Shown here in pieces: positions 785 through 50,509 of a DNA stretch of 64,000 nt. Origin of the DNA: Patescibacteria group bacterium (GTDB taxonomy: Bacteria > Patescibacteriota > JABMPQ01 > JAQVVF01). Every line of letters begins with the position of its first letter. The first letter of the stretch is position 1. The stretch lies in the NCBI GenBank assembly GCA_028699085.1, contig JAQVVF010000002.1:3074-67073 (forward strand). Direction: 5' to 3'. A program made the position numbers and the translations under genes. The notes under the pieces were generated by a model, which worked only from the letters and a program-made list of their open reading frames with translations, did no database searches and had not been told where the DNA came from.

Positions 785-861
785 GGACCTGTAGCTCAGC
801 TGGATAGAGCGTCCGTCTCCGGAACGGAAGGTCACCGGTTCGAATCCGGCCAGGTCCACCA
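785..861 (+). tRNA. tRNA-Arg (anticodon CCG)
   Basis: Cloverleaf read by hand: acceptor GGACCTG/CAGGTCC, D-arm GCTCAGCTGGATAGAGC, anticodon stem GTCCG/CGGAA (weak first pair), loop TCTCCGGAA (9 nt, unresolved), T-arm CACCGGTTCGAATCCGGC, encoded CCA. Confidence 0.8.
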
Positions 862-880
862 GCCATTCTTGTTCTTTTTA

Positions 881-953
881 GGCCCCATAGCTCAGTGGAT
901 AGAGCAGCGGTTTCCTAAACCGCGGGTCGCCAGTTCAAGTCTGGCTGGGGTCA
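881..953 (+). tRNA. tRNA-Arg (anticodon CCT)
   Basis: Acceptor GGCCCCA/TGGGGTC (one G-U), anticodon stem GCGGT/ACCGC, loop TTCCTAA, T-arm GCCAGTTCAAGTCTGGC. No encoded CCA. Confidence 0.8.
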
Positions 954-973
954 CAACCACCAGTTTACGGTTA

Positions 974-1049
974 GCGCCTGTAGCTCAGTGGATAGAGCAG
1001 CGGACTTCGAATCCGACTGTCGCAGGTTCAAATCCTGTCAGGCGCGCCA
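974..1049 (+). tRNA. tRNA-Arg (anticodon TCG)
   Basis: Acceptor GCGCCTG/CAGGCGC, D-arm GCTCAGTGGATAGAGC, anticodon loop CTTCGAA, T-arm GCAGGTTCAAATCCTGT, encoded CCA. Confidence 0.8.
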
Positions 1050-1074
1050 AATTCAGATATTCTGTTTGAGTCAA

Positions 1075-1150
1075 GGGCCTGTAGCTCAGTGGATAGAGCA
1101 TCCGCCTTCTAAGCGGAGGGTCGTCGGTTCGAGCCCGATCAGGCCTGCCA
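1075..1150 (+). tRNA. tRNA-Arg (anticodon TCT)
   Basis: Acceptor GGGCCTG/CAGGCCT, anticodon stem TCCGC/GCGGA, loop CTTCTAA, T-arm GTCGGTTCGAGCCCGAT, encoded CCA. Confidence 0.8.
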
Positions 1151-1220
1151 AAGTTTACACTTTTGTAAACAACCAATTTATTTCTTTGCACTTTTAATCA
1201 CAATTATTCTTGTACCTTTA

Positions 1221-1296
1221 GCGCCTGTAGCTCAGTGGATAGAGCACTGGTCTGCGGAACCAGGGGTCGTCGGTTCGAAACCGATCAGGCGCGCCA
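1221..1296 (+). tRNA. tRNA-Arg (apparent anticodon GCG)
   Basis: Acceptor GCGCCTG/CAGGCGC, anticodon stem CTGGT/ACCAG, loop CTGCGGA (positions 34-36 = GCG), T-arm GTCGGTTCGAAACCGAT, encoded CCA. It is near-identical to tRNAs 3 and 4 outside the anticodon arm. Confidence 0.7.
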
Positions 1297-1322
1297 AACA
1301 ACATCTTTGATGTTGTTTTTTC
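1296..1322 (+). terminator. Rho-independent terminator after the tRNA-Arg array
   Basis: Stem CAACATC (1299-1305), loop TTT, stem GATGTTG (1309-1315), then a T6 run. Confidence 0.6.
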
Positions 1323-1395
1323 TTTGACAAAAATTAATAAATTCAGTATTAATTAAAATTATTATAAAAAATTGAAAATTTGCTTAAGAATACTA

Positions 1396-1423
1396 TTGCA
1401 AATATTTTTTAGAAGCCTATAAT
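1396..1423 (+). promoter_or_regulatory. Candidate sigma70 promoter for arcA-argS (-35 TTGCAA 1396-1401, 16-nt spacer, -10 TATAAT 1418-1423)
   Basis: The -10 is a perfect consensus hexamer. It lies about 100 nt upstream of the ATG at 1521, and the leader holds two small hairpins (GGGCAAATGCCC and GCAGGCAAAACCTGC). Confidence 0.45.
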
Positions 1424-1520
1424 GTGCTGAAGCACCTTGACAATTTATTACATTTTTTGAAAAATCGAAAGGGCAAATGCCCTAGCAAAGCAGGCAAAAC
1501 CTGCAAGGAGCAAGAAGAAG

Positions 1521-2774
1521 ATGGAACAAAAAACAAAAGGATTGAAAGTTTATTCTGAAATTGGACGACTCCGTCGAGTCATGATTCATTTCCCTGGTAA
1601 CAACCATGCCTTGATGACTCCTGACAATATCAATCCTGGAAGCGAGAACTATTTGCTCTATGATGATATCGTCAATCCCAAGCGTACCAGACAGGAATTT
1701 CATACCTTTGCCGATATCTTGAGAGCTGTCGCCGAAGTCGTCACCATCGAAGATTTGATGACTGATATTTTCCGCGATCCGCAAATTCGTCTTCATGCAA
1801 TCAATATTGTTGCAAAAATTGAAGGTCTTAACCAAAATGACGCTTCAGAACTCGACTCTCTCGAAGGAGACCAGCTGACGCGTACGTTCATCATCGGCCG
1901 TTACGATGGTCAGATGAATGGCAAGAAATACTTTGAGCCTGATCCCAATTTGATTTTCACTCGCGATATTGCAGCTATTGTTGGCAATCATGCAGTTCTC
2001 TGCTATGCCAGCAAGAAAGCTCGCAATCGTGAGATGGCAATTGTCCGACTTGTTCTGAAATATCATCCGCTCTTCAGCGATCTCAAGTTGATTGACATCA
2101 ACGAAGATACTGATCAAATCGTTACCATTGAAGGCGGAGACATGGCAGTCGTTAGCGACAAAGTAGTTCTGGTTGGATGTTCCGAAAGGACTAACGAAAT
2201 TGCCATTGACCGGCTCGCCAATCGCCTTCTGCAAAATGGTTTCGAAACTGTCGCTCGAGTCAGTCTCGCTGAGGCTCGCTCGTGCATGCACTTGGATACG
2301 ATCTTCACTCGCATTTCTCACAACGAAGCAATTGTTCATGCTCCAATGGTTTTGAAAAATGGTGGCTTGAAAATCGAGTACAGATCGAAGCGTATCAAAG
2401 AATGGACTAGAGATAACAACAACTTGATTAGCTTCCTCTATGCAAACAATATCGAACTTGATCCCATCGTCTGTGGTGGACATAATGAAGTCAATCAGCT
2501 CCGCGAACAGTGGACCGATGGCGCCAACATGTTTGCACTGGCACCCGGAGTAGTCATTGGCTACAACTGCAATGACAATACTCTGCTGGAACTGGGCAAG
2601 CGAGGTTACAAAGTCATCGACGCCGACGAATTCGTCCGCAATTCCGGCTACTACATGTATCGCTACGAGCAGGCTGATTGGAAACTGGCGATTGCTCTGC
2701 CTGGCGCTGAACTCTCTCGCGGCCGCGGCGGTCCTCGCTGTATGACCTGCCCTCTCCTGCGTGATGACGTCTGA
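1521..2774 (+). CDS. arcA: Arginine deiminase (amidinotransferase superfamily)
   Basis: N-terminal VYSEIGRLRRVMIHFPG...LLYDDI, mid FTRD and MHLDTIFT motifs, and C-terminal GGPRCMTCPL catalytic-Cys motif are all characteristic of ADI. The start has an AAGGAG-like RBS. GC content is clearly higher than in neighbouring genes. Confidence 0.8.
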   Translation: MEQKTKGLKVYSEIGRLRRVMIHFPGNNHALMTPDNINPGSENYLLYDDIVNPKRTRQEFHTFADILRAVAEVVTIEDLMTDIFRDPQIRLHAINIVAKIEGLNQNDASELDSLEGDQLTRTFIIGRYDGQMNGKKYFEPDPNLIFTRDIAAIVGNHAVLCYASKKARNREMAIVRLVLKYHPLFSDLKLIDINEDTDQIVTIEGGDMAVVSDKVVLVGCSERTNEIAIDRLANRLLQNGFETVARVSLAEARSCMHLDTIFTRISHNEAIVHAPMVLKNGGLKIEYRSKRIKEWTRDNNNLISFLYANNIELDPIVCGGHNEVNQLREQWTDGANMFALAPGVVIGYNCNDNTLLELGKRGYKVIDADEFVRNSGYYMYRYEQADWKLAIALPGAELSRGRGGPRCMTCPLLRDDV

Positions 2775-2790
2775 TCTAAGGAGTCACCAA

Positions 2791-4656
2791 ATGAAAACTC
2801 AAAATCTTTTGGAATTTGTTTGTTATCAACTTCTTTTCGCTGCACAGACTACTGTCAATCCAGACTTCAGTACAGCCGAATTTTCACCAAGCAAGCTCAA
2901 GAAACCGCCCAAGCCAGAACTTGGCGATTTCGCTTTTCCTTGCTTTCAGTTGAAAGACTTCGGTGATCCCGCAGACATCGCAGTCTACATTCAAGATTTT
3001 CTGCAAACTGCTATTCCAGCCAATGATCTGATCAAGAAGGTTGAAGTCCAAGGACCTTTCGTCAACATTCATCTCAACACCGGAGTTTTGGCCCAATTGG
3101 TCTGCTCACAGATCTTGGAAGAAGGCCCAAACTACGGCACAGGTTCTGTTGGCCACGGCCAGCGCGTCATGATCGAATTCTTGGCTCCAAACAGTAACAA
3201 GCCTTTGCATCTCGGACACGTCCGGAATGCTTTGCTTGGCGCCAGCATCTCTCGAATTTTCCAAGCCATGGGCTTCGAAGTTATTCGCGCCAACTTGATC
3301 AACGATCGAGGTGCCCACATCTGCAAAAGCATCTATGCTTGGCAAACATGGGGCAATGGCGAAACTCCGCAAAGTACTGGCATCAAGGGCGACCACTTCG
3401 TTGGACGCTACTATGCCCTGTATGGAAAGAAGGAAGACGAAGCTTTTGCTGCTCTTCTCACGTCTCAAGGACTTGATCCGCAAGCTCCTTTGGATGACAA
3501 GGAAGAACGCAAAGCTGCTTTCCTGGAACAGTATCCACCAGCCTTGGCTGTCAAAGATATGCTACTGAAATGGGAAGCCAGCGATCCGAAAGTCTTAGCC
3601 CTTTGGCAGATGATGAATGGCTGGACATACGCCGGTTTTGATGCAACCCTCGCCAAACTCGGAATCGTATTCGATCGAATCTACTATGAAAGCACTACCT
3701 ACTTGCTTGGAAGACAACATGTATTGGACGGACTTAGTCGAGGCGTCTTTTACCGCAAAGAAGATGGAGCAGTTTACGCTGACCTAAAAAATGAAGGTCT
3801 TGATGACAAACTGCTTCTCCGATCAGATGGCACTTCAGTTTATATCACTCAAGATATCGGCACTGCGATTTTGAAATCAACAGACTATCAGCCTCTTGCT
3901 CGATCAGTCTATATCGTTGGCTCAGAACAAATTCACCATTTCAAAGTCCTCTTCTTGCTTCTGAAAATGCTTGACATTGAAGAAGTCAAAAATACTCTCC
4001 TCTATCATCTGCCTTATGGCATGGTCAACCTGCCTGAAGGAAAAATGAAGTCACGACTGGGCAAAATCGTTGATGCTGATGACTTGATCAGAAGCATCGT
4101 CGAACTCGCCAGAACTGAAGCTGAAGCTCTCAACGAAGGAAGGGAAGAAAAAATCACTGAAGTCGAACTTGACGAAATCGCTCGGCAAGTCGGACTTGGA
4201 GCGTTGAAATTCTTCTTCCTTGACAGCAAAGCCCTCTCGGAAATGCGCTACGACCCCAAAAAGTCAATCGCATTCAATGGCCGAACTGGACCTTTCGTCC
4301 AATATACGTATGCTAGAATTGCCAGCTTGCTACGGAAAGCTGAAGAAATCAAGGATCCAGCAAAAATTGATTTCTTGACTCTGCACGAAAGCGACGAACA
4401 TTCATTGCTCCTCGCTCTCACAGAGTTTGGAGCAGTAATTCAGGCAGCAGCAGAAAACTACGATCCATCAAAAATTTCTGCTTATCTTTTTGACCTTGCT
4501 AGAATTTTCAATCGATTCTATGCAAGCCATCGAATCTTTTCTGACGATGTGCCAAAGCAAACTCAATTAGCTCGTCTTGCACTTTGCAAATGCACTGGTG
4601 TTGTAATCAAAAAAGGCCTCGATCTCCTAGGAATCGAAGCCCCTGAAAAAATGTAA
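2791..4656 (+). CDS. argS: Arginyl-tRNA synthetase (class I)
   Basis: Start chosen at ATG 2791, which has a AAGGAG RBS at 2778-2783; the ORF track begins at 2761. HIGH-type motif PNSNKPLHLGHVRN and a C-terminal DALR anticodon-binding region (DLARIFNRFY). GC-rich like arcA. Confidence 0.9.
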   Translation: MKTQNLLEFVCYQLLFAAQTTVNPDFSTAEFSPSKLKKPPKPELGDFAFPCFQLKDFGDPADIAVYIQDFLQTAIPANDLIKKVEVQGPFVNIHLNTGVLAQLVCSQILEEGPNYGTGSVGHGQRVMIEFLAPNSNKPLHLGHVRNALLGASISRIFQAMGFEVIRANLINDRGAHICKSIYAWQTWGNGETPQSTGIKGDHFVGRYYALYGKKEDEAFAALLTSQGLDPQAPLDDKEERKAAFLEQYPPALAVKDMLLKWEASDPKVLALWQMMNGWTYAGFDATLAKLGIVFDRIYYESTTYLLGRQHVLDGLSRGVFYRKEDGAVYADLKNEGLDDKLLLRSDGTSVYITQDIGTAILKSTDYQPLARSVYIVGSEQIHHFKVLFLLLKMLDIEEVKNTLLYHLPYGMVNLPEGKMKSRLGKIVDADDLIRSIVELARTEAEALNEGREEKITEVELDEIARQVGLGALKFFFLDSKALSEMRYDPKKSIAFNGRTGPFVQYTYARIASLLRKAEEIKDPAKIDFLTLHESDEHSLLLALTEFGAVIQAAAENYDPSKISAYLFDLARIFNRFYASHRIFSDDVPKQTQLARLALCKCTGVVIKKGLDLLGIEAPEKM

Positions 4657-5816: not shown

Positions 5817-6371
5817 TCAATCAACCAGCATCCGGAATTCTCCATTCAGCTCGAAAAGAACAACCTGCAGAGAAAAATCCGGCATTGCTTTTCGCAAAAT
5901 CGCCAAAAGATTTTTCTGCTCTGACTCATAATAATAAGGAACGATATTGATTGCTTCACCTGCAATTTCAGATTTTTTCAAACAGAGTCCAGCATCCAGC
6001 ATTACACAAGTAAACTTGCCACTCGGATATTTCAATTTGATCGTACCATTCAGTTTCCAACTTCCATCTTCTTTCTGCTTGGGACGTCTTCTTGGCGGAA
6101 GCTCCATCAACATCTGAAAAACTCTTTCTGCATCAGGAACCAGAGAAGCTTCATAAGCGATATAATCAGGGTTCGGAGCAAAATCAACAACCAAAGCATC
6201 TCTTTCCGTTTCATCCAGATCTTTTAATTCATGAAAATCATCAATAAACAACATTGTCTTATCATCCAATTGTCTCAATTGCTCCAATATTCTCCAGCCA
6301 ACTACTGACCATAACGTTGGACCCTTTGCTTGATAATAGTGTCCAGCCTCCAAGATCCTTGCTTCTTCCAT
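5817..6371 (-). CDS. Hypothetical protein (GC-rich orphan)
   Basis: Start reassigned to the internal Met (MEEARILE...) at 6369-6371, which is preceded by a GGAGGAGG RBS. The ORF-track extension to 6437 reads through an upstream terminator hairpin. No recognisable motifs. GC-richer than its neighbours. Confidence 0.5.
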   Translation of the reverse strand: MEEARILEAGHYYQAKGPTLWSVVGWRILEQLRQLDDKTMLFIDDFHELKDLDETERDALVVDFAPNPDYIAYEASLVPDAERVFQMLMELPPRRRPKQKEDGSWKLNGTIKLKYPSGKFTCVMLDAGLCLKKSEIAGEAINIVPYYYESEQKNLLAILRKAMPDFSLQVVLFELNGEFRMLVD

Positions 6372-6396
6372 TTTCCTCCTCCTCTCTATCCAAAAG

Positions 6397-6427
6397 CAAA
6401 AAAAAGATCTCGGACTTCCGAGATCTT
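6397..6427 (-). terminator. Strong rho-independent terminator (minus strand)
   Basis: Perfect 10-bp stem AGATCTCGGA/TCCGAGATCT (6405-6426) with a 2-nt loop, followed on the minus strand by T8. Confidence 0.55.
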
Positions 6428-6576
6428 TATGTATCAATTTTTCAAAAAATTAAAGATTCGGGAATCCATTTTCCATTAATTCATTTCTACGACGATTTGT
6501 AATTGCAGTAATATTTTTCATTCACTTTAAAGAATACGCTAAGTCAAAATAAGTGTCAAGTCGATTTTTATAAAAG

Positions 6577-7173
6577 TTATTCTAATTTTCCACCAGTTAT
6601 CTTATCAATATATTCCTTATTTTTCATTAGTATTTTTCCAACTCTAGGATATGCTTTGAATCGATTATAAGATATTTTGAATGGATAAATATCAGCTTTG
6701 TTTTTTTCAACATTAAAAAATGTCCGACAATCTGAATAAGCTAAAATTTTTTCTTCTATTGTTTTTGCTAAAGTATCTTTATTACCTAATCCAATTTTTT
6801 TATTCACTTCTTTTGTCTGACCAACACCGCCCATATGCCGAATACAAACTCTTGCAATTTTTTCCGGCCACTTCATTTTCTTCGCTAGTTCATAACCTCT
6901 TAGTCCATGATAAATTGCTGGCTGTAATTCCTTTGATGCTTTGCTTCCAGAAATCATTCGTCCTAAATCATGAATATAACAACCAATTTTCAAAAAATCC
7001 AAATCAATTTTGTAGCCATTTTTAATTGCTAAATTTGCAATCTTTTTAGAAAAATTCCAAACTACAGTTTCATGATCCCAAGTTTCATCGACTTGCTCTG
7101 ATATACCATTTTCTTTTGCTATTTTTTTCATTAAACTTTTGACTTGTAATAAACTAGGTAATTTTTTCAACAT
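6577..7173 (-). CDS. HD-domain phosphohydrolase
   Basis: H...HD motif (IGCYIHDLGR) and downstream RHMGGVG. The start is ambiguous: the ORF track gives 7221, but Met17 at 7173 avoids overlap with the upstream gene. Confidence 0.6.
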   Translation of the reverse strand: MLKKLPSLLQVKSLMKKIAKENGISEQVDETWDHETVVWNFSKKIANLAIKNGYKIDLDFLKIGCYIHDLGRMISGSKASKELQPAIYHGLRGYELAKKMKWPEKIARVCIRHMGGVGQTKEVNKKIGLGNKDTLAKTIEEKILAYSDCRTFFNVEKNKADIYPFKISYNRFKAYPRVGKILMKNKEYIDKITGGKLE

Positions 7174-8015
7174 ATTTTTGAATCTAAAAAAACAATGAAA
7201 ACTAGATATCCAATTATACATCCAATTGTAATTGGAGGCAATGCCGGAAAAGCTTTTTTTTCTTTCTTAAAATAAAAATAAACATTAATTGCCATAACAC
7301 CAAACAAAGCTCCAATTATTACTAAAACAGAACTTAACGAACTATCTCTCAAAACTGAAACTGCAAAAATAATTGGAAAAGCTAAATCTCCAGTTCCTAA
7401 AAACATAAAATCTTCACCTGGTTTTGCTTTATCTATTCCAGCTAAAAAACCGACTAATTTATTTGGCACAATAATCGATAAATTAGCGCCATTCTCCATC
7501 ATTTTTTTAAACATCAAAACCATATGCTTAGTTTTGAATACAGCAATAAAATCATAGACTGACAAAATAACAAGCATAATAATTATTTGCCCTGGCAAAA
7601 AAGATAATCCGATATAAGAGCTGATCCCAGAAATTGCTAATATAATTGCAATATTATGCGTTAAGACAGAAGGCATAAATCTCCGTAATAAAACTATAAT
7701 CAACGCCAAACCTAATCCTAAATATCCTAATGCAAAAACATCAAAAAATGCTAAACAACCCGAAAACAATAAAACATAAAAAAAACTAGAAAATATAATT
7801 CTACTTTTTGCATACTTAATCACTAATAGAACAACCACAGTACCGACTAAAAAGGCAATCAAAAATTGCCATAATGAATAAGATTGCTTTGCTACTAATT
7901 CTTTTACTTCTTCAACTTGAAAAAGTCGCCAACCCAAATATAAACCTAAAAACTGCGTTATTAAAAATAACAATCCTTCAAAAAACATAAAATTAAAAGA
8001 AAAATTTTTTTCCAA
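7167..8015 (-). CDS. Presenilin/signal-peptide-peptidase-like GxGD intramembrane aspartyl protease (family A22-like)
   Basis: Polytopic membrane protein carrying YD (SVYDFIAV), GxGD (FLGTGDLAFP) and PAL (AFPALPP) motifs in the canonical order and spacing. Confidence 0.5.
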   Translation of the reverse strand: MEKNFSFNFMFFEGLLFLITQFLGLYLGWRLFQVEEVKELVAKQSYSLWQFLIAFLVGTVVVLLVIKYAKSRIIFSSFFYVLLFSGCLAFFDVFALGYLGLGLALIIVLLRRFMPSVLTHNIAIILAISGISSYIGLSFLPGQIIIMLVILSVYDFIAVFKTKHMVLMFKKMMENGANLSIIVPNKLVGFLAGIDKAKPGEDFMFLGTGDLAFPIIFAVSVLRDSSLSSVLVIIGALFGVMAINVYFYFKKEKKAFPALPPITIGCIIGYLVFIVFLDSKIC

Positions 8016-8114
8016 AATTTTAAAATTATTTTATATAACACTATTTTATCATTTTTATAAAAAATAGAAATAAATAACAAAAAATCGTGGTTTTTCCACG
8101 ATTTTTAATTTATC

Positions 8115-8687
8115 TTATTTTTCGCCTACCAACTGCACTGCATCAATTTCTGTCCATTCATTAGGAGCTTTTGTAGTATCAAGTGTAATCTTCACAGTCT
8201 TTACTAAATAATCAGTCTTGTTAAATTTTAATTGCAAATTATTTATTCCTTTTGTTGGATCATCTCCTGTCCAAATCTGATGATATTTACCGTTAGTATC
8301 CTTTAATTCAATCTTTGTTACTGCACCACTTCCATAACTTTCTTTTACTCTTACAGCAGTTGCATGAACAGCAGTAGCAAAATTAACTTCTAATGTCTCG
8401 ATGCCAACATTTTTATCCTTTGGAGCCCAAGCATTTACATCATCAGAATAAGCATTTACATTTGGTTTGCCAATTGCTTGTTTTGCTGACCAGGATTCAT
8501 CATTCTTAGCATTATTATAGGTCGATGAAGCAATCGCACTCACTGCCCATTGTCCGTTCTCATCTGACAAAATCTGACTATCAGGAACATTACTAATTGT
8601 TGCAGTTTGATTTTTGCTACAACCTGCACCAATTCCAACCAATACGATTGTCAAAAAAAATATCACAAGATAAATCCTCTTTTTCAT
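8115..8687 (-). CDS. Secreted lipoprotein, function unknown
   Basis: Signal peptide with lipobox (LVGIGAGC|SKN); the rest looks soluble and beta-rich. Confidence 0.5.
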   Translation of the reverse strand: MKKRIYLVIFFLTIVLVGIGAGCSKNQTATISNVPDSQILSDENGQWAVSAIASSTYNNAKNDESWSAKQAIGKPNVNAYSDDVNAWAPKDKNVGIETLEVNFATAVHATAVRVKESYGSGAVTKIELKDTNGKYHQIWTGDDPTKGINNLQLKFNKTDYLVKTVKITLDTTKAPNEWTEIDAVQLVGEK

Positions 8688-9679: not shown

Positions 9680-10762
9680 TTAAAATCTCAACATCGCTCC
9701 AATTCCACCCATTCCCGCTAATTTTTCATTATCTTCCACAAATTCAATTTTTGCTTTATGGCTAAAAACCTTTTGAACTAATTCATCAACTACATCCTTG
9801 ACATCTTCTGTTTTGAAACTGCAATAAGGACAAACAACTTCATCAAGACCCAAAAAATCACAATTTGGACATTTCTTTCCAGTTGTACTTAATTTAGAAT
9901 CAAGCAACAAAGTTTTAACATCTCTCTCTTGTGCTGCATTCAAAACATTTTTCAAACCGGCAACAGCTAGCTGACCATTCAAACTATTATTTAATTCTTC
10001 AACAAGCATTGCCTCATTTTTTCTTTCTACTTTTTCTTGAACTTGCAATGACTGTTCTAAAAAATGTTCATTAGGCTTGAATAATTCTGTATAAAATTCA
10101 CCTACTACTCTATTTTTCAATTCTGTATGCAAAATTTTCTTTAATTCCGGCAAGATCTCTTTTGATCCAGCTAAAATCAGTCTATCAAATCCTTTTTCTT
10201 TCCAAAATTTAAAAAGCTGATCATTGATCTTTTTCAAATGACGATGCACATGCTCTTCGATATGCAAAGCCTCGCCTTGTTGTACTAATCCGCCTTGATC
10301 ATGTTTGCCAGGAAACTCATCAAAAATATAGCTAAAATCTTGAATCACACCCAAAAAGACTGTAAACAATTTTGCTTTTTCTTTATCACAAACTACAACA
10401 CAATATCTTTCTAATTCATCAAGGACTTGTAACAGTTGCTCAATATGAACATTTTTTTCAACATAAGCTCCTGTCTTAATTGGACAAGGAAATTTATAGA
10501 TTGACCAAAAATTTTTAGATGGACTAGCGTAAAATGCCATGCCTCGGATTTTTTTATCCAATCTCAAATCAATCCATTCTTCAACTTGTTTTGTTGCTTC
10601 ACTTCCCAATTTTTCTTCAACATTTTTCAATAAATCTTTTAGCTTATTTTCAATTTCTTCTGGCTTGTAACGTCTTTGATCGCAATTTAAATAAAGTGTT
10701 ACTACATCCTCTTTGTCGCTTTGTAAACGATTTAATTTTGTTATGTCTTTATTTTCTATCAT
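9680..10762 (-). CDS. eRF1/Pelota-like protein (bacterial eRF1-domain protein) with zinc-ribbon insert
   Basis: Central KHDQGGLVQQGEALHIEEHVHRH resembles the eRF1 domain-2 KHGRGGQSA...RH region, although no GGQ is present. The C-terminal AGMGGIGAMLRF matches the eRF1/Pelota domain-3 GGIAAILRY motif. A CPNC...CPYC ribbon sits in domain 3. Confidence 0.5.
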   Translation of the reverse strand: MIENKDITKLNRLQSDKEDVVTLYLNCDQRRYKPEEIENKLKDLLKNVEEKLGSEATKQVEEWIDLRLDKKIRGMAFYASPSKNFWSIYKFPCPIKTGAYVEKNVHIEQLLQVLDELERYCVVVCDKEKAKLFTVFLGVIQDFSYIFDEFPGKHDQGGLVQQGEALHIEEHVHRHLKKINDQLFKFWKEKGFDRLILAGSKEILPELKKILHTELKNRVVGEFYTELFKPNEHFLEQSLQVQEKVERKNEAMLVEELNNSLNGQLAVAGLKNVLNAAQERDVKTLLLDSKLSTTGKKCPNCDFLGLDEVVCPYCSFKTEDVKDVVDELVQKVFSHKAKIEFVEDNEKLAGMGGIGAMLRF

Positions 10763-11251: not shown

Positions 11252-12057
11252 CTATTTCACTCCAATCGCAAAATATTGTGTCTTAATTGGATATTTTGTG
11301 AAATATTTTACAATGAATTTCTTGTCTTTCTTGATTATCTTGGCATCTGTGAATGTTGTATTAATATTCTGCCATGTGCCAGTTCCTTTTTTGTATTTTA
11401 AGAATAGATTTGCTTTTGTTGCTGATTTATTCTTTTTAAGATATTTCTTTAATTGCTTTTTAGTAAATTTGAATGATACTTTGATTTTGAATTTCTGTGA
11501 TGATTTTTTTACTTTGTATTTGTATAAATTTGTTTTCAATTTCCACTTTTTCAAGAACGTTTTGTTTGGATAACCAGTTGATTTATTCCATTTCATCCAA
11601 TATGCGCTGTTCTTTGTTAATTTGGTTGGAAGCTTTGTGAAATTGATTGTTAGACTTTGACCAGAGATTATTTCATTATTTAATTCTGATTCAAGAATAA
11701 ATTTCTGTCCTGCCCTTAATAAATCTTCGGCCTGATTATTTTCAACCTGGTTAGCTTCAATGATGTATGCTTCTGTTTTGATTTCTTCTGTATTACCAAG
11801 ACTGTCAATTGAAAAGAATTTTAAAGTTGTATCTTGAGTAATTACTATTGGATTTGAATAAACTGTTGAAGAAGTTGTTGGATCTGTGCCATCAATTGTG
11901 TAATAAGTTGCAACAACTGTTGAGTCTGCATCTGTGGCAGATAAAGTAATAGTTTGAGGAGCAGTATATGTTCCTCCAGCTAGCGAAGCTGTGGTTGTAG
12001 GAGCAAGGTAATCAATAAACCATGAAGCAATGTAATTTGCTGATATACCGCCGGCAG
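11252..12057. repeat. Dispersed repeat of about 0.8 kb, near-identical to 56644-57428 (3' module of the propeller-family genes)
   Basis: Aligned by eye: long runs of identity with scattered substitutions and one roughly 20-nt indel. Related but more diverged copies occur at 35539-35935 and 18082-18480. Confidence 0.7.
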
Positions 12058-13057
12058 TTGTAAAATCACCTCCGACATAGAGTTCGTCATTATAGACTGT
12101 TAATGCATCTACTTCATAATTCATTCCAGATCCTACTGCACTCCAAGAAAAGCCATTCCATTTCGAAATACAATTACCATAATCACCAGTAAAATCTCCA
12201 CCAGCATAAAGTTCATTATCATATACAACTAATGAATAAATATTTCCTGTAATTGTAGTGCCAACAGCACCTAAAGAATTATTATCCCAAACAGCAATAT
12301 AGTTAGAAACACCACCGCCAGCAATAGTGAATATTCCGCCAATATACAATTCATTATCGTAAACTGCTAAGGAATACACAAAACTATCAAGCTCAGTTCC
12401 ATCTCCAACTTTGCTCCAAGAACTTCCATTCCATTTCGAGATGTAATTGCCATTAACAGATGTAAATGCTCCTCCAACATAAAGTTCGTTATTATAAACA
12501 CAAAGAGAATTTACATAAGAGTTTAATTCTGTTCCAGCTCCAACTGGAGTCCATGAAGAATCATTCCATTTAACGATATAATTAGCAGGAGCACCATCAA
12601 TATTAGCATTACCACCAACATATAATTCATTATTATAGACAGCTAAGGAATAAACATTACCAGTTACTGCAGTGCCAACAGCACTTAAAGAACTGCCATC
12701 CCAAACAGCAATATAATTGGCAACACTGCCGCCAGCAATAGTAAATGTTCCGCCAATATATAGCTTGTTATTATAAACTACCATAGAAGTAGCTCGACCA
12801 TTGTTAATTCCTGTACCTGCTACTGAACTCCATGAACTGCCATTCCATTTAGCAATTCTTGAACCAGGACTAGTTGTAAAATAACCACCGACATATAGTT
12901 CATTATTGTAAACTGCAAGCGAACGTATATAGCTATCAGTTCCATCACCCAATGCACTCCAAGATGAACTTGTTCTAGCAAAAGATTGATTAACGAAACA
13001 ATAAACACCAATGACTAGAATCATAAACAACGTCATTCTTAAAAATATTTTTTTCAT
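11252..13057 (-). CDS. Secreted 7-bladed beta-propeller surface protein with lysine-rich C-terminal domain (paralog family member 1)
   Basis: Signal peptide MKKIFLRMTLFMILVIGVYCFVNQSFA, then seven repeats of about 47 aa (VYNNELYVGGxFT...NYIAKWNGSSWSxVG). An Ig-like segment follows (YTIDGTDPTTSSTVYSNPIVITQDTTLKFFSID), then a roughly 125-aa K-rich tail ending FAIGVK. Confidence 0.8.
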   Translation of the reverse strand: MKKIFLRMTLFMILVIGVYCFVNQSFARTSSSWSALGDGTDSYIRSLAVYNNELYVGGYFTTSPGSRIAKWNGSSWSSVAGTGINNGRATSMVVYNNKLYIGGTFTIAGGSVANYIAVWDGSSLSAVGTAVTGNVYSLAVYNNELYVGGNANIDGAPANYIVKWNDSSWTPVGAGTELNSYVNSLCVYNNELYVGGAFTSVNGNYISKWNGSSWSKVGDGTELDSFVYSLAVYDNELYIGGIFTIAGGGVSNYIAVWDNNSLGAVGTTITGNIYSLVVYDNELYAGGDFTGDYGNCISKWNGFSWSAVGSGMNYEVDALTVYNDELYVGGDFTTAGGISANYIASWFIDYLAPTTTASLAGGTYTAPQTITLSATDADSTVVATYYTIDGTDPTTSSTVYSNPIVITQDTTLKFFSIDSLGNTEEIKTEAYIIEANQVENNQAEDLLRAGQKFILESELNNEIISGQSLTINFTKLPTKLTKNSAYWMKWNKSTGYPNKTFLKKWKLKTNLYKYKVKKSSQKFKIKVSFKFTKKQLKKYLKKNKSATKANLFLKYKKGTGTWQNINTTFTDAKIIKKDKKFIVKYFTKYPIKTQYFAIGVK

Positions 13058-18081: not shown

Positions 18082-19647
18082 CTATTTCATTCCTATTGCA
18101 AAATAATTAGTCTTTTTTGGAAAATGAGTAAAATATTTTACAATCATTTTCTTGTTTTTCTTAACTAATTTTGCATCTGTAAAAACTTCAGTCAAATTTT
18201 TCCAAGAAGTCTTTTTATTTTTATACTTCAAAGTCAAATTTGATTTCGAAGCTAATGAATTTTTCTTTTTTAATTTATTCAAAAGTTTTTTTGTATATTT
18301 AAATGTAACTTTTACTTTAAATTTTTGCGATGACTTTTTAGCTTTGTATTTATTTAAATTTGTTGTTAATTTCCAATATCTCTTTAATGCAGTCTTTTTA
18401 GAAGTTTTCCATTTCTTTGGATAAGCATCATATTTATTCCATTTCATCCAATAAGCATTATTTTTAGTCAACTTATTTGGCAAATTCTTGAAAAAAATAT
18501 TCAAGCTTTGGCCAGAAATTGCATATTCGTCCAAAACTGATCTCAAAGTCACTTCATCTCCATTTACTAAATTTTCCTCTTCGATTAATCTCCATTCTTC
18601 TGTTGTGTAATCACGTTTCCAGACTTTCGCAGTACCATTCACATAACCACCTGCATATAAACCATCAAAACCAAAAGATAATGCATTAGCTCCCGTATAT
18701 AAACTTGGAGATGATTCAAGAACAGTCTGACTCCAAGAGCTATTGACAAACGACCAAACAACTGCTCTCGTCTCAGAATTTACTTCGTCGTATCCAACAA
18801 CATATAAATTATCTTTTAGAGCAATCATCCGACCAGCATAATTTACTGAAGTACTAGAAGTTAAAGAATCTAGCCAATTTCCATTTTCATATTTCCAAAC
18901 CAAAATATTACTGTTGCCATAGCCACTACCATAAATAGTTCCATCACTAGTCTGAGCTAAAGAATTAATTTCTGAGCCACTCAAATTATAAGTCATATTA
19001 GACCAAGTATTATTAGAATATTTCCAAATTCTTGCATTATAATCAGCTCCATCATAATAACTACCACCTGCATAAATACTACCATCATAACTTTGTAATA
19101 AACTGTTAACGTTATTTCCATTCAATCCTTCGATACTATTAGCTACATCAGACCACACTTCATTAGAATATTTCCAAACTCTTGCATGAAAATTATTGTA
19201 TTGACCACCAGCATAAATAGAGCCATCAGAAGCTAAAAGCAAATCATTAACGCTGCTTCCTTCTAAAACGCCAGTAACATCCAACCAAGATGCTCCCAAA
19301 CATTTCCAAACTCTTGCATAACTTATCATCCCCTCATAATATGTACCCCCTGCATAAATATTACCATCAGAACTCTGAACAAAGCTTAAAACATAAGAAC
19401 CATTTAAACCTGCACTAATATCCTGCCAGACTCCTCCAGCATATTTCCATATTCTTGCATAACTATTTCCGTCATACCCGCCTCCGGCATATACTGATCC
19501 ATCAGAAGCCGTAAAAAGAGCGCCAATTTCACTACCATCGATTGTACCCGTAATGTCTGTCCAGGCCAATGTTGCTTTTGAAAAACCAAAACAACAAAGG
19601 ACTAAACTCACGCAAAGCGCAAATCCAAATAGTACTTTTTTTCGCAT
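18082..19647 (-). CDS. Secreted beta-propeller surface protein with K-rich C-terminal domain (paralog 2, diverged)
   Basis: Start taken at MRKKVLFG, which begins a signal peptide. Blades read DGSIYAGGxY...ARIWKYSNxxWS. The C-terminal K-rich domain is homologous to that of 11252..13057 and ends FAIGMK. Confidence 0.75.
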   Translation of the reverse strand: MRKKVLFGFALCVSLVLCCFGFSKATLAWTDITGTIDGSEIGALFTASDGSVYAGGGYDGNSYARIWKYAGGVWQDISAGLNGSYVLSFVQSSDGNIYAGGTYYEGMISYARVWKCLGASWLDVTGVLEGSSVNDLLLASDGSIYAGGQYNNFHARVWKYSNEVWSDVANSIEGLNGNNVNSLLQSYDGSIYAGGSYYDGADYNARIWKYSNNTWSNMTYNLSGSEINSLAQTSDGTIYGSGYGNSNILVWKYENGNWLDSLTSSTSVNYAGRMIALKDNLYVVGYDEVNSETRAVVWSFVNSSWSQTVLESSPSLYTGANALSFGFDGLYAGGYVNGTAKVWKRDYTTEEWRLIEEENLVNGDEVTLRSVLDEYAISGQSLNIFFKNLPNKLTKNNAYWMKWNKYDAYPKKWKTSKKTALKRYWKLTTNLNKYKAKKSSQKFKVKVTFKYTKKLLNKLKKKNSLASKSNLTLKYKNKKTSWKNLTEVFTDAKLVKKNKKMIVKYFTHFPKKTNYFAIGMK

Positions 19648-19756
19648 TTTTGTTTTTCCTCGTCCGCCATAGTTCACTACCTTCGCAAAAGCGTGGAACA
19701 AAAGCGGATGTTTATTTATTAAATTATAATAATCTAAGATTTCGTACTCCTTTAAT

Positions 19757-32106: not shown

Positions 32107-32576
32107 AACTCAAGTAAGTCAGTAAGCCAGGTTCTGTACCGCACATAAAATTTTATGTGCGGTAGTGATTATCTCTCTAGACTGTCGATCGCTCGACAGC
32201 TCAAGCCCCAGTTTATATTGGGTTGCATCAGGTAGAGTTTGCCCTATTGTTATGTCACCATAACAATCTGTGGTCTCTTAAACCACTCTTTTCACCCTTA
32301 CCTAGCACATAAATGCACTAGGCGGTATATGTCTCTGTGGTACTTGTCCTAGCTTCAAAACAACCAGTTCTCTTAAGAAGAACCGGATATTTCTTATACT
32401 TGGTTCCATTTCGGAACTACCACTTAATTCGGAAGTCGGAAATCGGAGCTTCAGAAATCGGAACGATCCGACCTCCGACATCCGATATCTGACTTCCGAA
32501 TTGATGCCCGGACTTTCCTCCCCGCACATAACTTTTGTAAATCATGCACAGAGCAATCACTCAACTTACTTGAGTT
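32107..32576 (-). ncRNA. rnpB: RNase P RNA (bacterial type, about 470 nt with an expansion segment)
   Basis: The minus strand contains GGAAAGTCCGGGC (P4 5' strand), AAGGGTGAAA (P10/11 region), ACAGAACCTGGCTTA (P4 3' strand) and a 13-bp P1 between 32564-32576 and 32107-32119. A candidate promoter is minus-strand TTGACA (32604-32609), 17 nt, TATTAT (32581-32586). Confidence 0.8.
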
Positions 32577-33337: not shown

Positions 33338-35347
33338 TTATTCAAAATCTAAATTTTGTTCTTCAGTTATTTCAGAGTTAGTCAGATTTGACAAAGCATC
33401 TTTAGAAGCAATCACAAATTTTACTTTCTCTAGTGTTCTAAAATAGAATGTCGGAGCAAATGGCCTGTTCTTTGTAGTAATATCTAAAGGATTAGGAATT
33501 GTATTTTTTGGGGTTTTGATAAGATAATTTCTAATTTTAAATTTTATTGTGTGTGATGTTTTGTTTTGATAAATTCGGTATGGTCCTCGCCAGTTGTTAT
33601 CTCTATCTTTGATGAATAATCTTAGATCTTTTTCTTTAATCTTGGTTTTATCAAGTTTTGTTTTTGAATAACGAATAGCTACATTAAAATTAATATGCTT
33701 ATTAACTTTTTTGGAATAAGCTTTTTTAACTGTGCCGATATTTGATGACAGTTTTAGATAGCCTGGATAGCTGTTCTTTTTCGTGAAACTGCCAAGATAT
33801 TTCTTTTTGTTTCTATTTAATTTAGTGTAAAGCTTGTTAATGACTTTTGCTTTTGGAAGCTTGTAAAATGTTAAATCTGCATTTGCTTCATTACTTTCAT
33901 AGATTTGATTTAAGACTGTGTCTTTAAGATCAATTTTTTCTGAAAAAGGAGTTGGAGTTACTGGAATTGAAATTGTGTACACTTCTGTTTTTACATCTTC
34001 AATATTTCCTGGACCATCGACAGAAAAGAATTTTAAAGTCGTATCTTCAGAAATAGTGATTGGAGATGAATAGACATTAGAAGATGTTGTTGGTGTTGAG
34101 CCGTCAGTTGTGTAATATGTTCCAGTAACTGTTGAATCTGTATCTGTAGCTGATAAAGTTACTATTTGATCTGAAGTATATGTGCCACCAGCTGGTGAAG
34201 CTGTTGTTATTGGAGCGATATAATCTATATACCAGGAAGCAATACTCTTTGTAGTAATTCCATCTGCTGAATAAAAATATCCTCCAGTATACAATTCATT
34301 ATTATAAACTGCCAAAGCATTAACTGTACTATTAACACCAAAAATTCCTACTTTGCTCCAGCTAGTCCCATTCCATTTAGCAATACGTCTTGCAACAGTA
34401 TCATCAACGTTATAAAAATGTCCTCCAATATACAATTCATTATTATAAACTGCCAAAGCATTAACTTTCCTATTAGCCATTGTACCTAAACCAGAAGTAC
34501 CTACTTGGCTCCAATTAATACCATTCCATTTGGCAATACCATTAACAGTAATGCCATCAGCTGTTGCAAGTTCTCCTCCAGCGTATAGTTCATTTTGATA
34601 AACTGCTAAAGAATAAACTCTAGAATTCATACCTGAAAGACCAACTTTACTCCAATTAGAACCATTCCATTTAGCAATATAATTAACAGTAATATCGTCA
34701 ACTATGGTAAAATGCCCTCCAGCGTACAACTCATTATTGTAAACTGCTAAAACATCTGGATATTGGTTCATTCCTGAAGTACCAACAGCACTCCAGTTAG
34801 CACCATTCCATTTAGCGATACGATTTATAGAAATGCCATCTGCTGCAGTAAAAAGTCCTCCAGCATATAATTCATTATTATAAGCTCCTAAAGTAGTTAC
34901 GATAGAATTCATTCCTGAAATGCCTACCTTGCTCCAGTTAGTGCCATTCCATTTTGCAATATAATTGACAGTGATACCGTCCATTGTAATGAAATCTCCT
35001 CCAACATATAATTCATCGTTATAAACAGCTAAACCATAGATTGTACTGCCAATTTCCGTACCTGAAGTACCTACCAGGCTCCAATTAGTGCCATTCCATT
35101 TAGCAATATGATTAACAGTAATGCCATCAACAGTAGCAAAATCGCCTCCAGCATACAATTCATTTTTATAAACTACTAAAGCATTGATTCCTCCATAACT
35201 CCATTGAGTGCCATCACTTTCCATGCCTGAAATTCCAACTTTGTTCCAAGCTGAGCTTGTTCTAGCAAGAGCCTGATTAGCTAAAAAATAGCATGAGCCT
35301 AGAGCCAAGAATGCAAAAACAATACTTCTTAAAAATGTCTTTTTCAT
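33338..35347 (-). CDS. Secreted beta-propeller surface protein (paralog 3) with a distinct K-rich C-terminal domain
   Basis: Start set at MKKTFLRS, a signal peptide; the ORF-track extension to 35386 lies in the leader. It has about 7-8 blades (VYNNELYAGGxFT...NxIAKWNGxNWS), the same Ig-like segment, and a diverged K-rich tail. Confidence 0.75.
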   Translation of the reverse strand: MKKTFLRSIVFAFLALGSCYFLANQALARTSSAWNKVGISGMESDGTQWSYGGINALVVYKNELYAGGDFATVDGITVNHIAKWNGTNWSLVGTSGTEIGSTIYGLAVYNDELYVGGDFITMDGITVNYIAKWNGTNWSKVGISGMNSIVTTLGAYNNELYAGGLFTAADGISINRIAKWNGANWSAVGTSGMNQYPDVLAVYNNELYAGGHFTIVDDITVNYIAKWNGSNWSKVGLSGMNSRVYSLAVYQNELYAGGELATADGITVNGIAKWNGINWSQVGTSGLGTMANRKVNALAVYNNELYIGGHFYNVDDTVARRIAKWNGTSWSKVGIFGVNSTVNALAVYNNELYTGGYFYSADGITTKSIASWYIDYIAPITTASPAGGTYTSDQIVTLSATDTDSTVTGTYYTTDGSTPTTSSNVYSSPITISEDTTLKFFSVDGPGNIEDVKTEVYTISIPVTPTPFSEKIDLKDTVLNQIYESNEANADLTFYKLPKAKVINKLYTKLNRNKKKYLGSFTKKNSYPGYLKLSSNIGTVKKAYSKKVNKHINFNVAIRYSKTKLDKTKIKEKDLRLFIKDRDNNWRGPYRIYQNKTSHTIKFKIRNYLIKTPKNTIPNPLDITTKNRPFAPTFYFRTLEKVKFVIASKDALSNLTNSEITEEQNLDFE

Positions 35348-35420
35348 TAATTTTAATTTTATTTTACTTGTCCGCCGAAGTTTCACAAAACGAAGGCGGA
35401 TAAAGATTTTAATTAATTAT

Positions 35421-35538: not shown

Positions 35539-37302
35539 CTATTTCACTCCAATCGCAAAATATTGTGTCTTAACTGGATATTTCGTAAAATATTTTACAA
35601 TGAATTTCTTGTCTTTCTTAATTATCTTAGCATCTGTAAATGCTGTATTGATATTCTGCCAAACGCCAGTTCCTTTTTTGTATTTTAAGTACAGATTTGA
35701 TTTTGTTGCTGACTTATTCTTCTTTAAGTATTTCTTTAATTGCTTTTTTGTGAATTTAAATGATACTTTGATTTTGTATTTTTGTGATGATTTTTTTACT
35801 TTGTATTTATATAAATTAGTTGTTAATTTCCACTTTTTCAAGAATGTTTTATCAGGATAACCTTTTTGTTTTTTCAGTTTCATCCAATAATTGTTATTCT
35901 TTGTTAATTTAGTTGGAAGATATTTAAATGTTGTTACTGAATCATTACAAGATATTTTCTGTTCTGATAAATATGATGCTAATGTCACTTTCGTTCCGCA
36001 TAAATCAATTTCATAAGTTTCTGTTTTTACTTCTTCAACATTGCCTGCGCTATCAACTGAAAAAAACTTCAAAGTTGTATCTTCAGTAATTGATATTGGA
36101 GCTGAATAAACTGATGAAGAAATTGTTGGAGTTGAACCATCAATAGTGTAATATGTTGCTGAAATTGGTGAATCTGTGTCAGTTGCGGTTAACGTAACAT
36201 TTTGGACTGCAGTATATGTACCGCCTACTGGTGAAGCTACTGTTGTTGGAGCTGTTGTATCTATATACCAAGAAGCAATGTAATTTACTGAAACATCGCC
36301 TGCAGTAATAAAAGTTCCTCCTGCATAAAGTTCGTCATTGTAAACAGCTAACGAAAAAACTACTGGGGGTAAACCTTCCGTACCAGTCATCCCAGACCCT
36401 GCTGGGCTCCAAGAAGAACCATTCCATTTAGCGATATTATATGCAGTAGTACCGCCAGCTGTAGTGAAAGAGCCTCCTGCGTATAGTTCATTATTATAGA
36501 CTGCTAAAGAATAAACATGAGTATTACTACCCGCCATTCCCGTACCAACTGTATTCCAATTTGTCCCATCCCATCTAGCAATATAATTGACTGTATGACC
36601 ACCAGCAGTAATAAAATCTCCTCCAGCATACAATTCATTATTATAAACTGCTAATGTCCTGATTCTATCGCTAGTTGATGAAAGAGTAAGACTGCTCCAG
36701 GCAGTACCGTTCCATTTAGCAATTTTAGCTGCTGGAGTTGTAAAAGATCCCGCAGCATATAGTTCATTATTATATTCTGCTAAAGCATAAACATCATTAT
36801 CCATTCCACTTCCTACTGCACTCCAAGATGAACCATCCCATTTAGCAATATTGCTAACTGGCGCCGTAAAGAATCCTCCGACATATAAATTATTACCATA
36901 AACAGCTAAAGACCGAACTTCATCATCCATCCCTGAATTAATTGATCTCCAATTACTACCATCCCATTCAGCAATATATGTAACTGCAATACCGCCAGCA
37001 GTAGTAAAAGCACCTCCAGCATATAATTTATTATTATAAACAGCCATAGTATATACATAATTATCCATTCCAGAGCCAACTTGGCTCCAACTAGTTCCAT
37101 TCCATTTTGCTATGAAATTTGTAAAAGTTCCTCCAACATAGAGCTCATTATTATATACAGCAAAAGAAGCAACTGGAAAATCTACTCCAGATCCAACAGC
37201 ACTCCAGCTCGAACTAGTTCTCGCAAAAGATTGATTTGCCATAAAACAAGATCCTACAATCAAAATCATAAACAGCGCAATTTTTAAAAACCATTTTTTC
37301 AT
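35539..37302 (-). CDS. Secreted beta-propeller surface protein with K-rich C-terminal domain (paralog 4)
   Basis: Signal peptide MKKWFLKIALFMILIVGSCFMANQSFA, repeated blades, an Ig-like segment, and a K-rich domain about 90% identical to paralogs 1 and 5. Confidence 0.8.
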   Translation of the reverse strand: MKKWFLKIALFMILIVGSCFMANQSFARTSSSWSAVGSGVDFPVASFAVYNNELYVGGTFTNFIAKWNGTSWSQVGSGMDNYVYTMAVYNNKLYAGGAFTTAGGIAVTYIAEWDGSNWRSINSGMDDEVRSLAVYGNNLYVGGFFTAPVSNIAKWDGSSWSAVGSGMDNDVYALAEYNNELYAAGSFTTPAAKIAKWNGTAWSSLTLSSTSDRIRTLAVYNNELYAGGDFITAGGHTVNYIARWDGTNWNTVGTGMAGSNTHVYSLAVYNNELYAGGSFTTAGGTTAYNIAKWNGSSWSPAGSGMTGTEGLPPVVFSLAVYNDELYAGGTFITAGDVSVNYIASWYIDTTAPTTVASPVGGTYTAVQNVTLTATDTDSPISATYYTIDGSTPTISSSVYSAPISITEDTTLKFFSVDSAGNVEEVKTETYEIDLCGTKVTLASYLSEQKISCNDSVTTFKYLPTKLTKNNNYWMKLKKQKGYPDKTFLKKWKLTTNLYKYKVKKSSQKYKIKVSFKFTKKQLKKYLKKNKSATKSNLYLKYKKGTGVWQNINTAFTDAKIIKKDKKFIVKYFTKYPVKTQYFAIGVK

Positions 37303-49228: not shown

Positions 49229-49990
49229 TTAAATCAACTTCAATGTGCATTCTGTTGCAAAAGAATAATCAGTTAATCTGATTCTTTCAATTTCGGTTGC
49301 CATTCTACGAACATCATTCAAATGAATTAAAACCAAATCGCCGATATGAACTTTGCCTCTCAAAAAACCATAGCCACATTCTCTCTCTTTATCATCTATT
49401 TTCAAAATCAAGCTGTCATCTTTCAATTCCAAAACATCTCCACATTCTACAAAACATCTTTTTCCATAACGCACCAATTTTGGAGTCAATCGTTCATAAA
49501 TAGAAGCATGAAAACTATGATGTGGCAAAGATTCAGACCTAACTAAACTATTAAGCAACATTCTTATCATTCTTCTTTTTTCTTCAGGCAAGACAGAAAA
49601 TTCTATATTCGTAATTATCTTTTGAATATCGCTAGCTGTTGGCAATTGAAGCAAATCGTTACCAATCCAATGTGCTTGCACTACTTGAATTTCAAAAGGA
49701 TCATCAATTCTATTTTGTTGTGCAATCAACAAATAATAGAAATATGAATAAAGCTGCTTCAGGCAATTTTCAATCCATTCATCACTTTTGCCACCATTGC
49801 CACCTACAAAACTATATAATCCATCACAAAATGCTCTATCATTTGAACAGCAATTCCATGAAAATCTCGCTGCCTCAATTAATCCTTCTCTGCTCATTAC
49901 CTTTCCTCCTTTATCTTTAAATTTAAAAGAGCAACTGTTACTAATATTTAAAAGCAGTTCATCATAATCATATCTTACAATACTTTTCAA
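49229..49990 (-). CDS. Hypothetical protein; its N-terminal domain is paralogous to 50003..50509 and its C-terminal roughly 90 aa is HypC-like
   Basis: Shares AHWIGNDLL and HHSFH motifs with the neighbouring ORF. The C-terminus ...GKVHIGDLVLIHLN... resembles the HypC/HupF beta-barrel but lacks the N-terminal MC. Confidence 0.45.
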   Translation of the reverse strand: MKSIVRYDYDELLLNISNSCSFKFKDKGGKVMSREGLIEAARFSWNCCSNDRAFCDGLYSFVGGNGGKSDEWIENCLKQLYSYFYYLLIAQQNRIDDPFEIQVVQAHWIGNDLLQLPTASDIQKIITNIEFSVLPEEKRRMIRMLLNSLVRSESLPHHSFHASIYERLTPKLVRYGKRCFVECGDVLELKDDSLILKIDDKERECGYGFLRGKVHIGDLVLIHLNDVRRMATEIERIRLTDYSFATECTLKLI

Positions 49991-50002
49991 AGAATAAATA
50001 AT

Positions 50003-50509
50003 CTATTTTTTCTTTATTAAATTTTTGTTTATTCTGTTGTAATATCTTAAATTTTTCATCTGAATTTTATCCAATTTCTGAATTTTTTCTTTCCAATGAA
50101 AAGAATAATAATTTTTGCCTATCTTTCTTATACTTATCTGGCAAATTCTTTTTAATTTATCATTCAACTTAATTTTTGGGTTGAATGGTTTTGCCTGCCA
50201 AACATGATATGAATGATGCGGATAACCATTATTTTCATATTTTGCCTTTTCTAGCAAATCATTACCAATCCAATATGCTTCCAAAACCTCTTCACTCAAT
50301 GGATCAGAAATTTTGTTTGCCTTTGCGATTTGCTTACAATAAAAATAAACTGCCTTAAAATTTTTTAATATTTTTTTGATTTCCTTCTTGTTTCCTTTTC
50401 CTTTTAACGAATAATTAACAAAAATATCAGCACAGCTTTTTTTCGGCCCGCACAAACCTAGCCTGTGTGGCACTAAAGAATATCTACAAGCATCCTGTAA
50501 AGTGAACAT
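50003..50509 (-). CDS. Hypothetical protein (paralog of the N-terminal domain of 49229..49990)
   Basis: AYWIGNDLL and HHSYHVW motifs; basic C-terminus. Confidence 0.45.
   Translation of the reverse strand: MFTLQDACRYSLVPHRLGLCGPKKSCADIFVNYSLKGKGNKKEIKKILKNFKAVYFYCKQIAKANKISDPLSEEVLEAYWIGNDLLEKAKYENNGYPHHSYHVWQAKPFNPKIKLNDKLKRICQISIRKIGKNYYSFHWKEKIQKLDKIQMKNLRYYNRINKNLIKKK

Follow-up and report, generated by a model that had tools for sequence, protein, structure and literature searches.

A probable presenilin-type intramembrane aspartyl protease native to a Patescibacteria bacterium

The window (the whole stretch of DNA analyzed, 64,000 nucleotides of contig JAQVVF010000002.1) carries on its minus strand, at positions 7167–8015, an open reading frame of 282 amino acids, read from a TTG at 8015, which was assigned to a GxGD intramembrane aspartyl protease of the presenilin/PSH family. 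The original prediction, made from the sequence alone, had singled out the peptides SVYDFIAV, FLGTGDLAFP, and AFPALPP; all three are present in the translation. They contain, respectively, Y154-D155 (codons at 7551–7556, minus strand), with the first catalytic aspartate in the sixth transmembrane helix (TM6); G207-T-G-D210 (7386–7397, minus strand), the GxGD motif, in which the second catalytic aspartate stands where TM7 begins; and P257-A-L-P260 (7236–7247, minus strand), the PAL motif just before TM9. For YD and GxGD, the assignment draws on the alignment with PSH, the archaeal presenilin homologue, on conservation among relatives, and on a structure model; for PAL, it draws on the latter two (see below). 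An alternative in-frame start, the ATG at 7988 (codon 10), would give a protein of 273 amino acids. This is the start used in a 95% identical relative (P0001), whereas another relative (P0005) aligns with the longer N terminus. The start of the protease is therefore uncertain by nine codons, with every TM helix unaffected.

The 3′ end of the gene also deserves comment. At 7197–7202 (minus strand), the T-run GTTTTC is longer by one T than its counterpart in the relatives, as seen in the DNA alignment with the related loci L001 and L002 and in the protein alignment of the C termini. Compared with L001 and L002, the extra T turns the conserved C terminus VSL[FIL]F-stop into VFIVFLDSKIC-stop and moves the stop codon from 7184–7186 to 7167–7169. 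The last five residues are thereby altered, so that they are unlike those of all relatives, and about six codons are added. The extra T may be a homopolymer or sequencing error, or it may be a real change.

Downstream of the protease gene, at 6577–7173 (minus strand), lies a gene for an HDIG/HD-domain metalloprotein (PF01966; TIGR00277 HDIG, 29.9 bits against a cutoff of 27.6). Its likely start, the ATG at 7173, overlaps the protease stop (ATGTTGA) and aligns with the start in L002, the one locus used for this comparison. Because of this overlap, the protease and HD genes look like a two-gene unit, which they probably form. In L001 and L002, too, an ORF of 197–198 amino acids, matching the HD gene in size, follows the protease gene. 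At 51% identity and further out, the two genes were no longer found side by side; as their adjacency is confined to close relatives, the pairing was given no functional weight. Terminator-like hairpins are found on both sides of the unit, one (8080–8106, minus strand; an 11-bp stem followed by a T tract) between an upstream lipoprotein-like gene (8115–8687) and the protease gene, the other (6403–6428, minus strand) downstream of the HD gene, where it would close the protease-HD unit. Altogether, four terminator-like sites were found when 0.6 were expected. The lipoprotein-like gene is absent from the matching position in L001 and L002, and promoter-like hits upstream are no commoner than in shuffles. 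Across the bacterial and archaeal relatives' loci examined, no conserved neighbor emerged as a candidate substrate or partner; the neighborhoods of the archaeal relatives are quite different (MCM-PSH-OB fold, or PolD-small-PSH-Hef).

The proposed membership in the A22 family was borne out by a Pfam search, in which the protein matched PF06550 (Signal-peptide peptidase, presenilin aspartyl protease) with 74 bits (gathering score, 23.9; E = 1.8e-20). This match, the only significant one in Pfam, is full-length, residues 16–276 covering profile positions 3–280 of 283. NF041679 (NCBIfam IMP_arch_presen, the equivalog model for archaeal PSH) was likewise matched over its full length (E = 1.7e-24). 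The score of 86.8 bits does not reach the equivalog cutoff of 125 bits, and the protease is therefore homologous to the characterized PSH, but was not filed as its orthologue. No match to PF01080 (presenilin sensu stricto, A22A) was obtained in the Pfam search, nor was there one to PF04258 (Peptidase_A22B, SPP sensu stricto), even at E ≤ 10; some relatives have a precomputed match to PF04258 besides that to PF06550. When sequences from the PDB were searched with phmmer, one protein was matched, the PSH (also MCMJR1) of Methanoculleus marisnigri (4hyc, 4hyg, and 4y6k; E = 8.5e-15). In this alignment, D155 of the protease pairs with D162 of PSH and D210 with D220, Y161-D162 and G217-M-G-D220 being the counterparts of YD and GxGD. 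The activity of MCMJR1 is lost when either catalytic aspartate is replaced by alanine (PMC2947513). Within an alignment of 64 relatives (mean column identity, 34%), Y154, D155, G207, G209, D210, L259, and P260 are invariant (64 of 64), and P257 and A258 are found in 59 and 61 relatives, respectively. With such E-values for PF06550 and PSH, and with motif residues shared by all 64 relatives, the identification is far beyond chance.

An AlphaFold2 model built from the alignment of the 64 relatives (pLDDT 93.7; pTM 0.91) contains nine hydrophobic helices (residues 7–33, 48–68, 72–92, 98–113, 117–138, 141–162, 208–223, 226–249, and 259–281). D155 lies within helix 141–162 (TM6), and helix 208–223 (TM7) carries D210 at its N-terminal end, in agreement with the expectation that both aspartates reside in TM helices; PAL directly precedes helix 259–281 (TM9). 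The loop between TM6 and TM7 is modeled with ∼45 residues and contains two short strands (180–184 and 203–207) just before GxGD. Foldseek, at E ≤ 1e-3, returned solely PSH, SPPL2a, and PSEN1, so that the predicted fold indeed matches the archaeal presenilin homologue on which superposition had been suggested; A24 structures were not among the significant fold matches. All testable hallmarks of the PF06550/A22 superfamily are thus present: the HMM match, YD, GxGD, PAL, and the nine-TM fold. The initial description of a polytopic protein of 282 amino acids, with the three motifs in the correct order and TM placement, is upheld by translation, alignment, and model alike.

The distribution of positive charges was used to predict the orientation in the membrane. 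Sixteen lysine and arginine residues of the protease fall in loops 2, 4, 6, and 8, compared with 4 in loops 1, 3, 5, and 7 plus the C terminus; the corresponding values for the family are 18.3 and 2.1, and the bias has the same direction in every one of the 64 sequences. Under the positive-inside rule, this predicts that the N terminus and the TM6-TM7 loop are cytoplasmic and that the C terminus is outside (N-in/C-out). This would be the orientation of presenilin and PSH and the opposite of the N-out/C-in arrangement of SPP, which is not predicted for the protease. [quoted passage not shown] Given a presenilin-type orientation, type-I (N-out/C-in) TM anchors or stubs would be likelier substrates than signal peptides, which we infer from a rule drawn from eukaryotic enzymes.

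A word-indexed search yielded 394 relatives, and PF06550 is present in all of the best 120 of these 394. Among the matches listed, Patescibacteria or Parcubacteria MAGs account for six (several of them named “presenilin family intramembrane aspartyl protease”) and DPANN archaea (Undinarchaeales, Nanoarchaeia, and Woesearchaeota) for four, and many are called “presenilin-like A22 family membrane protease” by JGI. One 87% identical protein from a Patescibacteria MAG (P0002) has already been named by NCBI. Profile searching of 1.84 billion representatives recovered 1972 proteins when the threshold was E ≤ 1e-3; at E ≤ 1e-30, it recovered 460, a number that refers to representatives at 50% identity and to the subfamily, composed of CPR and DPANN proteins, that is recovered at this threshold. 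Judged by their neighboring genes, P0015 and P0022 are bacterial and P0070, P0109, and P0073 archaeal; for P0026 and P0120, the neighbors gave no assignment to either domain. A neighbor-joining (NJ) tree places the bacterial sequences, 13 in all, in a single sector and every archaeal one in another. The domain of four further proteins, predicted blind from their position in the tree, was right in every case (P0047 and P0067, bacterial; P0068 and P0066, archaeal). The archaeal set is monophyletic in 58 of 200 NJ bootstraps (29%), which means that the split is weakly supported, and the tree has no resolved root; for these reasons, no claim is made on the direction of transfer. Mean identity is 0.42 within the bacterial and 0.41 within the archaeal sequences, 0.36 between the two, and 0.26 to the PSH of M. 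marisnigri. Thus, the CPR and DPANN proteins constitute one subfamily, well separated from the characterized PSH, although their similarity could be inflated by a shared AT-rich amino acid bias. Judged by sequence, the protease belongs to this distinct CPR/DPANN-type subfamily, outside the characterized PSH group. An ancient inter-domain transfer between CPR and DPANN lineages would be a plausible origin of this relationship.

That the gene resides in a bacterium, as had been stated at the outset, is confirmed by its surroundings. The window contains a bacterial class-A RNase P RNA (32107–32572; 187 bits) and genes for LepA, MurJ, DivIC, FtsX, RecJ, Bac_transf, SecY, S5, and a SurA/PpiC chaperone, with bacterial housekeeping genes on both sides of the protease gene. 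Its GC content of ∼31% and the location of nearly all genes on one strand fit Patescibacteria/CPR, as do genes for arginine deiminase, acetate kinase, NiFe hydrogenase, and a baeRF (eRF1-like) protein. It is very improbable that the protease gene is in fact archaeal (DPANN) and was placed among bacterial genes by mis-assembly or by very recent transfer. Relatives of 38–43% identity do occur on archaeal contigs, beside TBP, MCM, PolD, or L7Ae, but both GC (0.28) and GC3 (0.19) of the gene match those of the flanking bacterial genes (GC3 ∼0.2), and the gene order SurA-baeRF ... NnrD-protease recurs in the independent bacterial assemblies L001, L002, and L003, down to 51% identity. L001, the nearest genomic locus (84% identity), is situated on a 654-kb contig of a MAG labeled Candidatus Saccharibacteria; the search of genome contigs, with the single protein as query, returned two close relatives. 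The position of all bacteria-assigned sequences in one sector of the tree and the correct blind predictions of domain also speak against an archaeal origin. So does the result of tblastn, which gave no match in phage and plasmid collections, and no mobile vehicle was therefore identified. Because its composition matches that of its neighbors and because the gene order recurs, the protease gene is a resident gene, neither a recent import nor an assembly artefact.

With regard to function, the GxGD motif is one that the protease has in common with type IV prepilin peptidases (A24, PilD/FlaK), but it also has the YD and PAL motifs, which A24 enzymes are not known to have. Pfam gave no match to Peptidase_A24 (PF01478) at E ≤ 10, and the predicted fold matches A22 enzymes only. 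Despite the heavy dependence of CPR bacteria on type IV pili (PMC6744442), assignment to the prepilin peptidases instead of the presenilin type is effectively refuted by the Pfam and fold results, and its probability is negligible. It is also highly improbable that the gene is a non-catalytic relic, or that the fold alone was kept for a non-proteolytic role as scaffold or ion leak channel: the catalytic and active site–shaping residues are strictly conserved over the 64 relatives in an alignment of only 34% mean column identity, a pattern that bears the mark of selection on catalysis. For presenilins, roles other than proteolysis have been proposed. Presenilin functions independent of γ-secretase have been argued for in particular (PMC6320538). 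An SPP-like signal-peptide peptidase, which would clear type-II remnants after signal peptidase and replace or supplement the usual bacterial SppA/RseP in a reduced genome, appears rather unlikely to us. The N-in/C-out orientation is predicted for 64 of 64 relatives and is the opposite of that of SPP and the same as that of presenilin, the eukaryotic rule pairs such an orientation with type-I and not type-II substrates, and the match to PF04258 is lacking even at the permissive threshold given above.

Very likely, then, the product of this gene is an intramembrane aspartyl protease with nine TM helices and no need of cofactors, which belongs to the presenilin/SPP superfamily (PF06550; MEROPS clan A22), is native to a tiny, uncultured Patescibacteria (CPR) bacterium, and has a predicted presenilin-type orientation, with type-I membrane proteins as its likely substrates. 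The protease is apparently active and a genuine presenilin relative, and the conservation of its catalytic residues suggests aspartate-dependent intramembrane proteolysis. From what is known of the family, D155 and D210 would activate water inside the membrane and hydrolyze the TM helix of a single-pass substrate, and the strands 180–184 and 203–207 may be the counterparts of those strands of γ-secretase that pair with the substrate. The enzyme would be expected to act alone and without autoproteolysis, like PSH and SPP, because its TM6-TM7 loop is short and because nicastrin, APH-1, and PEN-2 are not known from bacteria. PSH cleaves C99 in detergent (PMC13507816). Clearing of the C-terminal anchor remnants of surface proteins may be mentioned as a possible, speculative role. 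It forms part of a wider, tentative proposal, which we regard as more doubtful than convincing. According to this proposal, the CPR and DPANN homologues are one subfamily that was shared by ancient inter-domain transfer and then inherited vertically within Patescibacteria, and, in these wall-bound, host-attached bacteria, a cofactor-free, presenilin-oriented protease would act on type-I anchors, possibly clearing the C-terminal anchor stubs of surface proteins, a role without known equivalent in other bacteria.

Presenilin is a membrane protease linked to Alzheimer's disease, and accounts of presenilin-type proteases usually place them in eukaryotes and archaea. To our knowledge, the mechanistic work on prokaryotic members of the family all rests on one methanogen enzyme, PSH. 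Homologues had been called uncommon in bacteria by the original prediction; their occurrence in bacteria holds, but their rarity does not within Patescibacteria, where the NCBI and JGI pipelines already name the family. Because the pipelines recognize the family in such bacteria, and because the locus reveals neither a substrate nor a new mechanism, the significance of the finding is limited, and the call, although correct, is fairly ordinary. The literature search, including bioRxiv, found among the papers listed no report on presenilin homologues in CPR/Patescibacteria, the phylogenomic study by Raut, Glass & Lieberman (2021; Proteins 89:232) lying outside its coverage; in Meheust et al (2019), intramembrane proteases go unmentioned. 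What interest is left lies in three points: the orientation, which is predicted to be of presenilin type; the PAL motif, which is canonical; and the relationship between CPR and DPANN. The locus presents what appears to be a well-conserved and active version of the protease, with canonical PAL, as a stable native gene in Patescibacteria, and the nearest relatives outside this group are those of DPANN archaea. The protein is a candidate for a further small, cofactor-free model enzyme, with motifs closer to those of human presenilin, and its gene would be one more case of sharing between two ultra-small episymbiotic radiations.

Among eukaryotic enzymes, presenilin-1/2 (A22A, the catalytic subunit of γ-secretase) are 12–16% identical to the protease, which, in contrast to them, does not have a long TM6-TM7 loop and is not expected to need endoproteolysis. 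SPP/SPPL2a (A22B; PDB 9K92 and 9K93) are 18% identical; the protease does not match PF04258 and lacks both a lumenal PA domain and an ER retrieval signal, and its predicted orientation is inverted relative to that of SPP. Much closer are the PF06550 proteins of DPANN archaea (Undinarchaeales, Nanoarchaeia, and Woesearchaeota MAGs), which have the same length, are 38–43% identical over the full length, and share the GTGD and PALP motifs and the predicted orientation; they are distinguished by their archaeal gene contexts and by their separate sector in the NJ tree (a split with 29% bootstrap). PSH/MCMJR1 of Methanoculleus marisnigri JR1 (PDB 4HYG, 4HYC, and 4Y6K) is likewise a single chain, of about 280–300 amino acids, with nine TM helices. 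At ∼26% identity, YD in TM6 and GxGD in TM7 align residue for residue with those of the protease, the KTKHM stretch after YD and the IVP strand before GxGD are conserved in both, and both have a short TM6-TM7 loop and, as expected in the case of the protease, no cofactors. The two differ in that the protease has GTGD where PSH has GMGD, and a canonical PAL(P) where MCMJR1/PSH has PPL (PMC2947513), and in their hosts, a CPR bacterium and a methanogen, respectively. In mechanism and fold, the protease is a PSH-like enzyme.

Five tandem tRNA-Arg genes (anticodons CCG, CCT, TCG, TCT and GCG), followed at their 3′ side by genes for an arginine deiminase (1521-2774) and an arginyl-tRNA synthetase (2761-4656), form an arginine island at window positions 785-4656. 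All genes of the island are encoded on the plus strand, whereas almost all others in the window lie on the minus strand. The GC content of the island is 0.46-0.53, and its GC3 ranges between 0.44 and 0.49, compared with ∼0.2 elsewhere in the window. The island looks foreign in composition, which suggests that an arginine-related module was gained laterally.

At the protease gene, a T-run (7197-7202, minus strand) differs by one base from its counterparts in L001 and L002, two bacterial loci carrying close relatives of the protease. This difference, which changes and lengthens the C-terminus of the protein, may be a homopolymer sequencing error. An ORF at 5817-6437 (minus strand; probable start at 6371, ∼184-206 aa) had no match in Pfam or NCBIfam; its GC content (0.40) exceeds that of the neighbouring genes. 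The gene at 9680-10762 (minus strand), whose synteny with the protease region extends to the related loci of other bacteria, encodes a bacterial eRF1-like protein of baeRF family 10 with eRF1 domain 3 at the C-terminus. Models for mycobacterial-type ribosome hibernation factors matched it weakly, far under their cutoffs.

The window also encodes a paralogous family of large secreted proteins, all five on the minus strand, with N-termini resembling signal peptides. Most contain CHB_HEX_C_1/Fn3_assoc domains; the member at 18082-19701 matches Reg_prop alone. In three of them (11252-13057, 35539-37302 and 56644-58488), the C-terminal ∼40 aa are nearly identical (WQNINTxFTDAKIIKKDKKFIVKYFTKYPxKTQYFAIGVK); this stretch has diverged at 18082-19701, and the C-terminal end of the fifth (33338-35386) is unlike that of the other members.

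Two adjacent minus-strand ORFs (49229-49990 and 50003-50509), adjoined by NiFe hydrogenase subunit genes, each match DUF6390. The matched parts of the profile overlap (positions 10-84 and 50-167); the pair may have arisen by partial tandem duplication or be a single gene that was split. At 466 nt versus 367 positions in the model, the class-A RNase P RNA of bacterial type (32107-32572, minus strand) contains sizeable insertions.

Among archaeal relatives of the protease, two neighbourhoods recur: TBP-MCM-protease-OB-fold-eIF2beta at the loci L005 and L012, and Cdc6-PolD small subunit-protease-Hef at L011 and the locus of P0109. In these DPANN-like genomes, the protease gene lies amid genes for replication.
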